From NCBI RefSeq assembly GCF_030013205.1, contig NZ_CP122649.1: DNA of 64,000 nt, one strand, 5' to 3'. Each line of letters begins with the position of its first letter. Positions within the stretch are counted from its first letter, which is position 1. The stretch comes from Escherichia coli. Its GTDB lineage: Bacteria > Pseudomonadota > Gammaproteobacteria > Enterobacterales > Enterobacteriaceae. Shown in pieces: positions 6,001 through 15,000 of this stretch. Position numbers: made by a program.

Positions 6001-9000
6001 ACACAGAAACAAATTGGGTTTCAGACCATTAAACAGCCTGACTCAGCGCGACGGGAAAAATTGAGGTCGCTGACAACCGCTAAGGCTATCAGCAAAAAGG
6101 GATAGCCTTAGGAGTTGATCCTGGATGACAGGATAGTGAGCCAGTATCTACTGGGTGTGTCCAAGGCGAATGTCCTCTTAGAGTGATCGTGCGCGCATGT
6201 TACGCCAGCAAAATTTTGCCGTCAACACGCAACAGAACACCACAGAACAATAGTTGAACTTCGCGCTTTTTGGTACTCGTCAAGGTCGCTAACAGGATAA
6301 AAAAATCCCACATCCAGGACCTATAATGGCGCATCAGCTACTCATTGGTAAAGGAATGATCACCTTGAATCTCAAACGGATTTTTCTCGCCCTCACCTTA
6401 CTTCCCTTGTTTGCTGTTGCCGCTGATGATTGCGCACTCTCAGATCCGACGCTGACCGTACAGGCGTATACCGTTAATCCTCAAACAGAGCGGGTGAAAA
6501 TGTACTGGCAAAAAGCCAATGGCGAAGCGTGGGGAACGTTACATGCTCTGCTGGCGGATATTAATAGTCAGGGTCAGGTGCAGATGGCGATGAACGGCGG
6601 CATCTTAAATTTGACGGTTTTTGATATAAAATATAGAAAGAAGGAGGTTTTCTGAATACCTCCTTCACTGGCGCTCAGTTCGAGAATACGTTAACGCTGT
6701 ACCGTTTACCGAGCACCTCGGCAGTGGTATCGACAATTTTCTGAATATCATCGGCAATCGCGGGTTTTACTGAATGCGACGGTGTGCAGTTCACCAGCCT
6801 GTTCCGCCGTCGCACCATCATGAAAGCGGCTGGCATCGTAAAGCTGGACCCGGAGTGTCCGGGTATAATCGACATGGCCCATTATTCCTCTCCTGTTCAG
6901 TCAGGCGCTATACGCGTTAATAATCACTTTCTTCCGGTTGCGGCTGGGTGACAAACTGGTACTTCACCCCATTAGGGACGCCAACGGCTTTTGCTACAGA
7001 TTCACACAGCAGCGACAGGTCATTCAGAGTCATCGGATATTCGATATCGACGGAATATAAGGCCCCGGCGTTCTCGGCCTCTTCGATATTTTTATACTGG
7101 GCACTGAAAATGGCTATGGTAGAGATTTCAAGGTTATGCATGAGTCAGTCCTTGTTAATAAAAAAGAAGCCACCGTAAGGTGGCTGAATAAAGGTTACTG
7201 GACCTGGCTGGCCTTTTTTTCCGCGTTCTTGTTGTAATCAACGCGGGCAATAACGACGGCAGCGGCCAGGAGTGCAGCGAGACCGCCGTAGAATACTGGT
7301 CGGGAGATATCGACGAACATATCGCTCAGGTTATCAACGCCGAGGAGAAATACGCAGATAATGACGATAAAGCGAACAGGTTTGCTGTAGAACAATTTCA
7401 TCAGGAGCTATCCTTCTGGGGTGAAATGACACCAGCATTACACCATATCAGATGCCAATTTTTTTTCGGTAACGGGCCTATTTTGACAAGAAAAAAGACA
7501 CATCAGGGAGGCAATGACGAGAGTATTTTCGAGGTGCCTATGGCCTGTCACTTCCTGAACTCAGGAAAAGAACGATGCTGTAGAACACAATCGAAATATA
7601 GAAAAGTAACTTTTCCACCGACGATATGTCCGGCGGCAAGTTATTCTTATGCAGGGCACAAATCAGTGAATTGGGTTCCGCGCGGGAAAGTCAAAAAAAC
7701 TTGCATGTCGTTCCGGATGCCAGGCGACGTAGCACATAGATTTGGGCCTGTGTAAGCGGGGAGCTGGGACGTTTTGTGTCTGCCATAATGTTCCTTTTAT
7801 AACGAGGGCTGTCCGGCTGACAGATTAGCGGACAGACCTGAAAATAACGTGCATATCCAGCACCTGGCTGAATCCCTGAGCGAGGCAAATGCCTTTACTC
7901 TTCCCCCTCCGACAACAACAAAAATGCGTTGAGCTTCCTCTTCGGCCTGTTCATCAGTCATGCTTTTCTCGCGGATGTGCGAAGTAAACAGGCTCCAGTT
8001 TGCAGCGATAAAATCACGTACTTGATGCATTTCCGAATTCTCAGCGTCAATAACCATTTTTAGTGTCCTGTGTCTTAAATAAGGTCCGCCCTGTTAATAG
8101 ATCAGGGACGGACTGTTTAAGCGAGATAGCCAGCCTGTGCCGTGGTTATCCATTCACCAGAGTGATTTTTGTGGGGGATACTTTGATACTAAAAGCATTA
8201 AATTTCTTTTTAAGAGCGAGTTCAAACCACGCCACCGGGATAGAGACCGAACTATCATCGCCGCCCAATGCCTCCTCTGCCTCGTCATACCATTCATCAT
8301 CAACAGACGGATTCATCCCACGGGCATAGACAACCGTATCACGGGAAACAGGGGTTCCATCCAGAGATGCATTGGTAATCAGATAGACGCCATGATCTTT
8401 TACCAGAAGGATCTGTGGAGTCAGGCGGGCCGGGTCAATGTGTTTGGATGATGGCCAGAAAATTCCCCCCGTCTGGTTCATTTCCACTTCTGTTTTGCCC
8501 TCTTCGTTGAGAGGAGTACCGCCGGGGTAATTTGACGGTTCAAAAAGCTGTTCAATGGTTGCATTGAACCGTTCCGCCGAGCGGAGTTCTTCGAGGAGCT
8601 TTTTTACCCCAGCAATTTCGAATGTTAATGTGGTCATAAACTTATTCTCCATCCGTAGTCAGCATCAGATATCGGGTGGCCAGTAGCAACTCTTTGACGT
8701 CAGCAGTTGAAACCTCCCCTTTGCCTTCTACCGCGTCCTGCAAACGCTGACGCGTCGCCTGAATCGTCTCTGACGACAGTGACGCCAGTTTGCTCAATAC
8801 AGCGTTAGCTTTTTCCACAGCGGGATACAGGGACTCTGAGGTGGTATTGTCTACATCGTTATCGAAAAACAGGTCAGACTCCATATTAATATTGTCTTCG
8901 AGCCAGCTGGTAAGAATATCAAGTAAAGACATAACTTTATTAATCTGCATTTTTCTCGCCCTCGGTTGATGTAATTCAAATATAACAAACTGTCTCGTCT

Positions 9001-12000: not shown

Positions 12001-15000
12001 GCTTTACCTTCTCCCAGATCAGATTCAAAGTAATTCCGCTTTACCCCAATCTGCTTTGGTCTTCCATTAATTCTGACGATTTCATGCCGCTCGTCGAAGA
12101 TAAAACCCTCTCCGACCAACGTCAGGAGGACAAAAGGGCCCTCGGCCTTTTGCGTACCCAGCGAACTCATCTCATTATTCATACGACCTCCCCGGTAATA
12201 CGCTTAAAGTTGACGACCCAGACCCACGGGTTGGCCTGCCAACTGTCCTCGCCGTACGTGTTTTTCCAGAGGCTGCGGAAGCCAAGAAAGTGCTTATCGC
12301 CAAGAACACAACATTCTGTTGGTGCGCCTTCAGCTTTGGCATCTTCCTCGCTGATGGTATTTAACCGCTCTACCCGCAAATCGGTAATTTCCAGTGCAAT
12401 ACGGCTGGCCCAGCGAGGCATATGGATTGAAGGTGTCCACGCACCTTCGAACTTCATATTTTCGGTACGAGGCTTCCAGTCGGCCTCATCAGGGATCGAC
12501 CACAGCCCATAATCCCCCGACCGCTGTTCGCAGCTCGCCCGGTAAATGCGGGCTGCTTCAGTCCTGTCCATCACGATGTTGTCATTCCAGTCCACCGCGC
12601 ACGCATCTTCATTCCCGAGCAATGAAAACGCCTCACGGACCGTAATGCGGTCGCCAACTACGCCGTACGGACAAGGCCGAAGCGCCGAGTATGGCTGGGT
12701 CCCTGTTGGAAGCCACCAGTCATGCGTGTGCCCGCGATGTCGCGGTGTTTGCGCAGGCCTTATAGACCATTCATCCGAACTATATTGAGGCTTTATAATC
12801 CGCCGCGTCTGTGTTTTCTGATCTGCCAGAATTGCCCGGACCATTTCATCATTAAAAAGCATTCCACGTGTCTTCACTGTGCTGACTCCTTTCACACATG
12901 GTTCACACATTGAGAGGCCTATCCCTCTTTATCAGCCAGGCATACCGAAACTGTCGGTAGTTTTACGGGAACGGGCAACTGCCCCCCTACCTGATAAAGT
13001 GGTGTTCTCCCCCAAAATTAATCGTATTCCCCATCCACTACCGGCTCAGTCGTAATTTCATATTTCACTCCGCCGGGTACATCCAACGCTTTAGCGACGG
13101 ACTCACACAGCAATGACAAATCATTCAGGGTCATTGGGTATTCAACTTCCAGGCTGTGCAGTGCATTGGCGCTGGCAGCAGCAGCCTTGTCAGCATGACA
13201 GGCATTAAAAACGAAAACGGTGGTTTTTTCTTGAATAGGCATAGTGCAATCCTCTGAATAATTAGCCCTGTGATCAGGGCGGTTTTTGATTAAATTTAAA
13301 TGTTCGTTTTCAATAATTAGTGAATCTGTTAATCGGGTTGTGACTTATCATTTTCTCCAACCGAAGTGCTGTCGAGAAATGACCATTCTTGTTTGGGGCT
13401 TTTATATAATGCACTAGCCTCAGTACTCATCCATGACTCACAGGCTTTATAAGTCATGCCTTCCTCTCTAACGCGGTCCTTAAAATACGCCCAGGCTTGC
13501 AGATCAAGCGGCTGATACTCTTTCAGCGACTGGTCAAGCCTTTCCTTCCAGATTTTCTTCCGATGAGTAAAATGAGGAAAAGCCAGGAATGCATAACTAC
13601 CTGCAACAAAAAAAAAGAACAGGAGTCCGCCCCATAGAGAATGTTTGAAAAACACCAGTCCTGGGAAAATCCATGCCACAATGGCAACAAATAAAAGAAG
13701 GTGCTCCTTCCCAGTAGGTTTATTAAAATGCCAGGAAATTGCAATACACTTTAATTTACTAAAGTGATTTTGTTTCTCCTTAATATCGGTCATATATCAG
13801 TCCTTACTTATAAAAAAATGGTTATTATTAGTCTGATGTAAAAGTTACTTTTCAAAACAGTCCCTTTAACGAATTCCGCACCTGCGCTCATTACAACACA
13901 CACCATTCGGCGCTTTTTCCGTTAACGGGGCTATTTTCACGTTTTTTGCACGTATGTCTGATTTTGCTGGTGGGCTCACGCCAGCACGCGGACCATACGT
14001 TTCAACAGAGGCCTTAACAACGCCGCCGTCCTCTCCCGGCATTCATCCACATGCCGGAACCCCGTCTTTTTCGAAGACTGGGGGCCGGATAACATCCGCA
14101 GCTCCCAGATGACTTCCCGTAAGGTTCCTTCGCGCTCCGGCGAAATACACCCGGCTAATGTCTCCAGAAAGCGTTTTCTTACGGCCCGGTAATACAGACG
14201 TTCTTCCGGTTGCTGTGACGAAATCCGCAGGTTACAGAGGGTCAGGACAGCGTCAAGAGTCCTTGCCTTCAGTTCGTCTCCCGTCCGGGCCAGATGTAGC
14301 TGTTGTTCTGTCTCCAGTTGCGTCGTTATCCACCCCCCCAGAGGGGTTTTGTTGTAGGTGTGCAGTGCCACACAGGCCGCAACACAGCACCAGAAGCGCA
14401 GTTTCTGCCGCTGCCCCCGCAGTTTGCGGGCTACGAGCAAGCGATAATCGCTGTCGGTCAGGATCTTGAAACGGCGGCTGGCGAGCAGAGACGGCAGCGG
14501 CGTCTGGTCGTTAATGCCAAGACGTGAATAGGCCTGCCCGCGTTGAGCGAGTCGATGGTACACCGCACCTTTCCCCCGCGAAATTCGGACGGCGCCGTAT
14601 CTAAGCAGGTACTGTGCCGCCGCCACAGGGGTAAACTCACCGTCAGACACACGCTGGCGTAATCCGTCATATTCATGCCAGATAATCCAGGATGCCGTGT
14701 CTTCATCGACCGTCAGCTCATCCTCTTCTTCGAATGCAACGATGTTCAGGCCTTCCCCGCTACTCATCAGACTGCGGGAAGCTCGCTCATCCTCCCGACC
14801 GTCAAAATAGGCTATTTCGGATGACGGATCGGACAGCCCGTCAAATGACGTCCCGATACGGCCTTCCGGCAACTTCATCCAGCGTGGTGCTGGCATCGGC
14901 GTGCGGGGTACTGGTTGCATAGCTGGCTCATCGTCGAGAAGATCCAGTGCCCCCCCTTCCCACACCTGGCGGTAAAGTTCAATGGCACGAAATGGGCGCG

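Follow-up and report, generated by a model that had tools for sequence, protein, structure and literature searches.

What are two small, similar genes doing some 6 kb apart in the same array of a large plasmid, and how did they come to be there? The question is raised by a 64,000-nucleotide stretch of Escherichia coli DNA (contig NZ_CP122649.1 of assembly GCF_030013205.1; the whole stretch is referred to below as the window), in which the original prediction, made from the sequence alone, pointed to a duplicated 74-aa gene. Both open reading frames (ORFs), which we call copy A and copy B, are indeed present in the same orientation; they lie on the minus strand, and plus-strand translation at their coordinates is interrupted by stops. 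The pair is real, but the count was incomplete, since a third, frameshifted paralog, copy C, adjoins copy A. The three represent a previously undescribed family of small IncHI-plasmid backbone proteins, with three paralog clades and a conserved membrane-protein neighbour.

Copy A, 6917..7141, minus strand: a 74-aa acidic cytosolic protein of the A clade (WP_000551715.1, a RefSeq "hypothetical protein").
Copy B, 13018..13242, minus strand: a 74-aa acidic paralog of the B clade (WP_001122308.1, a RefSeq "hypothetical protein").
Copy C, 6675..6882, minus strand: the third paralog (C clade), directly after copy A; a pseudogene in the window and an intact 68-aa gene in relatives (WP_000510222.1).

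An Old Duplication Maintained at the Protein Level

The products of copies A and B align by BLASTP without gaps over residues 5-67 of 74, with 36/63 identities (57%), 79% positives and an E value of 1e-22. They are the sole such pair in the region when all window ORFs of at least 45 aa are compared with one another (BLASTP, E 4.8e-20). Within the match lies a core of 19 residues, EYPMTLNDLSLLCESVAKA (residues 34-52), which is identical in both proteins. The DNA encoding this core has 12 synonymous differences at ~14 synonymous sites and 0 non-synonymous differences at 43 sites, which reflects constraint at the level of the protein, not low complexity or a recent gene conversion. Outside the core the proportion of non-synonymous differences (pN) is 0.43, and the synonymous sites between the two genes are saturated (pS 0.80 by the Nei-Gojobori count). 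The concern that the similarity might turn out to be confined to a low-complexity patch is thus answered by the span of the match itself. In every ortholog pair pN is far below pS, and the ratio of the two substitution rates (dN/dS) is 0.23-0.35 where it can be estimated. The similarity between A and B is real, ancient and maintained at the protein level.

Both ORFs have strong Shine-Dalgarno sequences (AAGGA for copy A), and hydrophobic segments are found in none of A, B or C. Copy A scores 1.1e-35 against the family profile. The net charge of each 74-aa protein is about -8, and the isoelectric points (pI) are 4.1 for A and 4.4 for B; across the family the A and B types are acidic (pI 4.1-4.7) and the C clade is near-neutral (pI 5.2-5.8).

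Copy C owes its present state to one extra A in the A-run at ~6765-6768, as seen in a DNA alignment. The frameshift yields two ORFs (6748..6882 and 6675..6875), both of which match the family hidden Markov model (HMM), and related IncHI1/IncHI2 plasmids carry an intact C gene of 66-68 aa at the same locus (L009:12260-12466 and L010:12265-12465). The membership of copy C has support that is independent of the profile by which it was found: an hhalign comparison of the A/B profile with the C profile gives a probability of 96.8% (E 2.8e-10), and a C-type protein matches a distant A-like protein directly (P0073 against P0046, BLASTP E 7e-15). In a neighbour-joining tree, which has low resolution at ~70 columns, C is the deepest clade and B is sister to the A clade. 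Between IncHI1 and IncHI2 plasmids the identity is 78% for A, 62% for B and 48% for C. A, B and the broken C are ancient paralogs in a small family that is specific to IncHI-type plasmids. As a separate observation, the plasmid record NZ_CP122645.1 shows the same frameshift in copy C, judged by the 44-aa ORF annotated there.

Distribution and Predicted Fold

The family is small and narrowly distributed. Word-indexed searches among 5.8 billion proteins gave only ~85 protein clusters, and an exhaustive HMMER search among 1.84 billion representatives gave only 20; the family proteins are 62-81 aa long. The named source organisms are all Enterobacterales, and plasmid size (>100 kb) is common among the contigs. 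By tblastn, the family is present in 1299 of the 72,556 PLSDB plasmids (1209 of the carriers being predicted conjugative) at ~2500 places, or roughly two per record, and A and B co-occur in most of these carriers. Three PLSDB records were typed, and all are MOBH/MPF_F and IncHI1B or IncHI2A. Among 50,697 phage records there were 0 with a family member. The window itself is IncHI1-type plasmid backbone: large E. coli plasmids match it at 99.9-100% identity, NZ_CP122645.1 among them (at ~64-128 kb in that record), and a near-identical plasmid types as IncHI1B / MOBH / MPF_F.

That no family or function could be assigned from the sequence is borne out by profile searches, which give no DUF or other described family. 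For A, B, C and the distant members, there was no match in Pfam-A, NCBIfam, PHROGs, PADLOC-DB or the PDB sequences, only noise with E >0.01 and far below cutoffs. The literature searched likewise held nothing relevant to these ORFs on the IncHI leading region, anti-defence or R27 function. About two thirds of the IncHI1/IncHI2 backbone ORFs are without known function (PMC6764697). The family is absent from the Pfam-A copy searched. It is of modest interest until a phenotype or partner is found. One candidate member, the 582-aa repeat protein P0048, was rejected as spurious; it matched only through a short GVKY-containing stretch.

An AlphaFold2 (AF2) model of copy B, built on a 9-sequence alignment, reached a mean predicted local distance difference test score (pLDDT) of 80 and a predicted template modelling score (pTM) of 0.62. 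The predicted fold consists of beta1 (5-13), alpha1 (19-24), beta2 (28-33), alpha2 (39-53) and beta3 (59-67), and the chain ends in an acidic tail that is disordered. The residues conserved throughout the family, E34, T38, N40 and D41, fall where beta2 ends, in the loop that joins it to alpha2, and where alpha2 begins. All three clades are under purifying selection in the plasmid backbone, with the strongest constraint on this loop and on helix alpha2. Fold searches with the model returned no significant structural neighbour; the weak top matches were PurS, PII-like, ACT and ferredoxin-like proteins, generic small alpha/beta sandwiches that have the beta-alpha-beta-alpha-beta topology in common with the model. 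The Met-Pro start of copy B brought 4-oxalocrotonate tautomerase to mind, an idea that we rejected because the A and C clades are without Pro2 and the topology differs.

Many public A and B alleles are frameshifted near the G-rich codons of "VPGGVKY", with replacement of strand beta3 (clusters P0019, P0022, P0024, P0039-P0042, P0062, P0064, P0066 and P0069), and some of them occur on 6-16 contigs. These alleles may be real variants or homopolymer errors of long-read sequencing.

A Candidate Role in Plasmid Establishment or Defence Evasion

What, then, might these proteins do? Their small size, the absence of a catalytic motif, the acidic charge, the restriction to one plasmid group, the presence of several diverged paralogs and the concentration of constraint on one helix and its loop together suggest that they bind something rather than catalyze a reaction. 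A suggestion as to the process comes from the company that the genes keep. Copies A and B lie in a long array that is almost uniformly on the minus strand and encodes a DndC-like PAPS-reductase protein, an ASCH-like protein, an HNH endonuclease, DUF6012, DUF957 and DUF3085 proteins, hok/sok and RelE/ParE. Beyond these the array continues with ParB-like genes, DUF4942, a DNA adenine methylase that lies on the opposite strand, the RepHI1 replicons, genes for Ig-like proteins and the Tra2 genes; the loci of relatives also have N6_N4 methyltransferase, Lar and GmrSD_N genes. A co-oriented array with this content, including orphan methylases, suggests a role in establishment or defence evasion. Our preferred reading is therefore a tentative one, to which we give a probability of roughly 40%: A, B and C would be non-enzymatic binding proteins that act in plasmid establishment or defence evasion. 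Through the face of alpha2 they would contact a conserved protein of the host or of the plasmid, and they would act as modulators or inhibitors while the plasmid establishes itself or evades defence. The paralogs may have become subfunctionalised, with A slow-evolving and acidic, B faster and acidic, and C fastest and near-neutral.

hok/sok, 1720-2036, minus strand: a type I toxin-antitoxin system in the downstream part of the array (sok at 1875-2036, 89 bits by Rfam; hok coding sequence ~1720-1878).

In an Rfam scan of the whole window, sok was the only family found, with none at A or B.

The gene content of the array can be compared with that of the anti-defence islands described for leading regions, the first-transferred regions next to the origin of transfer (oriT), in which methyltransferase, toxin-antitoxin and anti-restriction-type genes stand in uniform orientation (Samuel et al. 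2024, PMC11541004). The array has both the uniform orientation and the methyltransferase and toxin-antitoxin-type genes of such islands. Nearly all genes from the Tra1 end to ~107 kb of the NZ_CP122645.1 record are on one strand, and the array points towards Tra1, with a probable oriT upstream of mobI at ~49 kb of that record.

Among known small proteins, two kinds invite comparison. ArdA and Ocr, which mimic DNA, and the anti-CRISPR proteins are small acidic anti-defence proteins of mobile elements. A and B resemble them in being small, acidic, restricted to mobile elements, narrow in taxonomic range and present as several paralogs, and in lying in a co-oriented array with orphan methyltransferases, nuclease-like and toxin-antitoxin genes. 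However, A, B and C have no sequence or structural similarity to them (Pfam, PDB and fold searches), copy A is much more conserved, and the C clade is not acidic. Small modulators of the Hha/YmoA type are also carried by IncHI plasmids; Hha is all-alpha and binds H-NS. The likeness here is in the size of ~70 aa, the coding in the IncHI backbone, the occurrence of paralogs and the presumed binding to protein, but the predicted beta-alpha-beta-alpha-beta fold of A, B and C is different and there is no sequence similarity.

Several points weigh against a role in establishment or defence evasion. The conservation of copy A between IncHI1 and IncHI2 is unusually high for a typical fast-evolving anti-defence gene, and copy C, being frameshifted, is dispensable in this plasmid. 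Some 10 kb, in which the relaxase operon lies, separate the end of the array from the probable oriT, and as to leading-region status, nothing on the direction of transfer of IncHI (MOBH) plasmids was found in the literature searched. Any binding partner or phenotype named for A, B and C is a candidate drawn from sequence, model and context.

The Membrane Protein mem68 as a Possible Partner of Copy A

It had been noted that each copy follows a membrane-protein gene, and in the window this holds, with two hydrophobic segments in each of the two membrane proteins.

mem68, 7195..7401, minus strand: a 68-aa membrane protein with two predicted transmembrane (TM) helices, directly upstream of copy A.
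154-aa protein, 13329..13793, minus strand: a protein with two predicted TM segments, upstream of copy B.

The two membrane proteins are unrelated to each other (BLASTP E 3.0), and only the first is a constant neighbour. A mem68 homolog of 63-68 aa immediately precedes an A-type gene in 10/10 sampled lineages, whose A-type proteins are 35-80% identical to copy A. Its architecture is the same in all of them and comprises an N-terminal MK..F.P.VR motif, TM helix 1, an SD.F loop, TM helix 2 and a basic tail; AF2 models it as a helical hairpin, and the mem68 HMM scores members that were not in the training set at 1e-15 to 5e-22. The 154-aa protein has no family match in Pfam, NCBIfam or PADLOC. 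The equivalent IncHI2 position (L020) lacks it, copy B there directly following the DndC-like gene, so the 154-aa protein is no conserved partner of B. A protein of the same length at the same position in L015 was considered as its counterpart and discarded: the two are unrelated, the L015 protein is no membrane protein, and that they are equally long is a coincidence.

The constancy of mem68 gives rise to the main rival explanation, that mem68 and copy A are a dedicated two-gene system in which a membrane effector or toxin is paired with a cytosolic neutraliser, regulator or anchor, and B and C are spare or orphan partners. The adjacency is kept in all ten lineages despite heavy reshuffling of other neighbours, and the co-occurrence is roughly 1:1 in plasmids of the IncHI1 type (one mem68 copy per plasmid in 265 of them, against ~264 with an A copy at >=90% identity). 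A promoter-like site upstream of mem68 (7551-7522) fits a mem68-A-C operon, and a stem-loop is conserved between the two genes, as described below. On the other hand, the two proteins evolve at very different rates, with IncHI1-IncHI2 identities of 28% for mem68 and 78% for A, and copy B in IncHI2 has no membrane gene next to it. Neither mem68 nor A, B or C matches a toxin or antitoxin model in Pfam, NCBIfam or PADLOC. An AF2 prediction for a mem68-(GGGGS)5-A fusion with a paired 10-lineage alignment gave a pTM of 0.34 and no gain in pLDDT in either part or in the tails, a weak negative.

A known system of this general kind is GhoT/GhoS, a type V toxin-antitoxin pair of a small two-TM membrane toxin and a small ferredoxin-like antitoxin. 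The gene order is reversed in the mem68-A pair, where the membrane gene comes first; there is no GhoT or GhoS match in Pfam, and the fusion model gives no support for a complex. On balance we regard the dedicated two-gene system as unlikely, although it is the alternative that survives best.

The preferred reading of A, B and C as binding proteins can also be combined with mem68 in a more specific and rather speculative form, which we doubt in its full detail. Among the principal vehicles of multidrug resistance in Salmonella, E. coli and Enterobacter are the IncHI1 and IncHI2 plasmids, whose resistance genes include mcr-1 and tet(X4). A, B and C might be IncHI-specific inhibitors of defence or of host factors that act through the invariant alpha2 surface, with the A-type protein placed at the inner membrane with mem68, and might in this way help these resistance plasmids to become established.

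The stem-loop between mem68 and copy A has a counterpart in front of copy B.

Stem-loop A, 7168..7185, minus strand: AGCCACC-TTAC-GGTGGCT and then a T-run, in the gap that separates mem68 from copy A; the ATG of A comes 26 nt later.
Stem-loop B, 13265..13280, minus strand: GCCCTG-ATCA-CAGGGC, 22 nt before the ATG of copy B.

Stem-loop A is a terminator-like match with a folding free energy (dG) of -11.7 to -12.3. We examined the A and B genes of the window together with L003, L005, L010, L012, L015 and L020, and in 8/8 cases the start codon is preceded by a perfect GC-rich stem-loop. In seven of these it ends 21-26 nt before the annotated ATG; in L005 the distance is 36 nt, and there the family HMM picks an earlier ORF start, a TTG. 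The stem sequences are unrelated among the lineages, and only some are followed by a T-run; copy B of IncHI2, for example, has a different stem-loop, CCCCCGGAATGGGGG, at the same distance. A comparable stem-loop precedes only 2/19 other genes of the window array (7797..8057 and 16527..16973). Possible roles for the element are partial termination, processing of the transcript and stabilisation of its 5' end.

The DndC-Like Gene and the Order of the Locus

DndC-like protein, 13976..16405, minus strand: 809 aa, with an N-terminal DndC-like / PAPS-reductase domain.

The second recurrent neighbour is a large enzyme-like protein. It matches Pfam PAPS_reduct at 1.5e-5 and PADLOC DndC at 2e-37; the NCBIfam DndC match (8e-33) stays under the equivalog cutoff, with 114 against 290 bits. 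Orthologs that are 53-76% identical are located upstream of the family in most sampled lineages. Wherever the contig reaches that far, the sampled lineages outside the IncHI1 and IncHI2 types all have the mem68-A pair shortly after a DndC-like gene of ~800 aa, on its downstream side. In the window (IncHI1) and in L020 (IncHI2), it is copy B that holds the position after the DndC-like gene, and the mem68-A-C unit is found 6-8.5 kb further on, after DUF3085. The clades are placed as follows: A always follows mem68, C follows A, and B in IncHI1/IncHI2 follows the DndC-like gene, with the 154-aa gene between them in the window.

Such an arrangement could mean that the small proteins serve the 809-aa protein, as accessory subunits or as regulators, in a plasmid pathway of DNA or nucleotide modification. 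In its favour, most sampled lineages have a family member no more than two genes after the DndC-like gene on the downstream side, and in IncHI1/IncHI2 this member is copy B. We consider this less likely, and indeed improbable. Downstream of the DndC-like homolog of Kluyvera georgiana, the most distant found at 45% identity, mem68 and the family are both missing, and in IncHI1 and IncHI2 copy A is separated from the enzyme gene by the 6-8.5 kb mentioned above. No DndA, DndD or DndE partner was matched among the nine other proteins scanned, which were mostly neighbours of the 809-aa protein. The shared order may also reflect nothing but common backbone ancestry.

Some features of the DndC-like gene deserve mention in their own right. 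A scan of the GTDB genomes with the DndC-like profile gave only 3 true relatives. The C-terminal ~350 aa of the protein are without a domain match. The gene is one intact ORF in the window, and two overlapping coding sequences are annotated in the otherwise 100%-identical NZ_CP122645.1; in this region the two sequences differ in length by 2 bases over 11 kb.

Whatever the function, the three small-protein clades with the linked mem68 and the DndC-like gene make up a compact set that can be tested for a part in plasmid establishment or anti-defence. Should the family prove to be only a minor accessory, the analysis still corrects the view of the array as a collection of modules and documents paralogy within the backbone.

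Origin of the Array

The proposal that the array was built by recent, repeated acquisition of modules, each made up of a membrane gene and a small gene, drew on the fact that in the window each copy follows the gene of a protein with two TM segments in the same orientation. It is effectively excluded by the comparisons reported here. At the nucleotide level nothing aligns beyond the coding sequences, and the two sites are not joined by any long direct repeat. Duplication is confined to the 74-codon gene and extends neither to the flanks nor to the membrane genes, which are unrelated, and the saturation of synonymous sites shows the duplication to be old. Neither was the array put together locally: orthologs of both A and B are found in IncHI2 and the two co-occur in most of the 1299 plasmids, which makes the pair a conserved feature of the backbone. 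The arrangement itself is kept between IncHI1 and IncHI2, and in IncHI2 B does without a membrane neighbour.

Least probable of all, and excluded for practical purposes, is that the ORFs are spurious or decaying and their similarity is that of a conserved DNA or RNA element: copy C is frameshifted in the window, as are many A and B alleles in public assemblies (some perhaps through sequencing errors), but the purely synonymous divergence of the core, the low dN/dS, the strong Shine-Dalgarno sequences, the lack of an Rfam match at these genes and the confident AF2 fold all argue against it.

Other Observations in the Window

Right after copy C the window (4188-6655) holds an IS1 element (insA/insB, 4188-4852) and a captured fragment of the E. 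coli chromosome with corA (5006-5971), ysgD and a truncated neighbouring gene (6326-6655). This insertion is absent from the related plasmid L009, and the captured fragment is the reason why an 11-kb query matched 5425/5426 E. coli genomes.

The window also contains tandem repeats. A large array of 53/54-bp repeats at 56859-59157, for which periods of 106, 158 and 264 were scored as well (the score reaching 1939), is situated upstream of parA/parB (~59.4 kb) and is probably a partition (centromere-like) site; on both strands the repeats give rise to numerous spurious ORFs that resemble one another. The two RepB-family initiator genes (44438-45313 and 30780-31661, 35% identical) have tandem repeats of 42-44 bp beside them, at 45786-46326 and 30640-30720, which are presumably the iterons of the two RepHI1 replicons.

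Three further pairs of paralogs were seen. Two adjacent hypothetical proteins on the plus strand (22045-22860 and 23010-23786) are 32% identical (E 2e-42), and two ParB-like proteins on the minus strand (38446-39603 and 42827-43903) are 35% identical. Two Ig-like proteins of ~800 aa, also on the minus strand (26152-28536 and 33413-35917), are 35% identical over 854 aa, and fragmented, frameshifted Ig-like pieces are found at 28787-30388.

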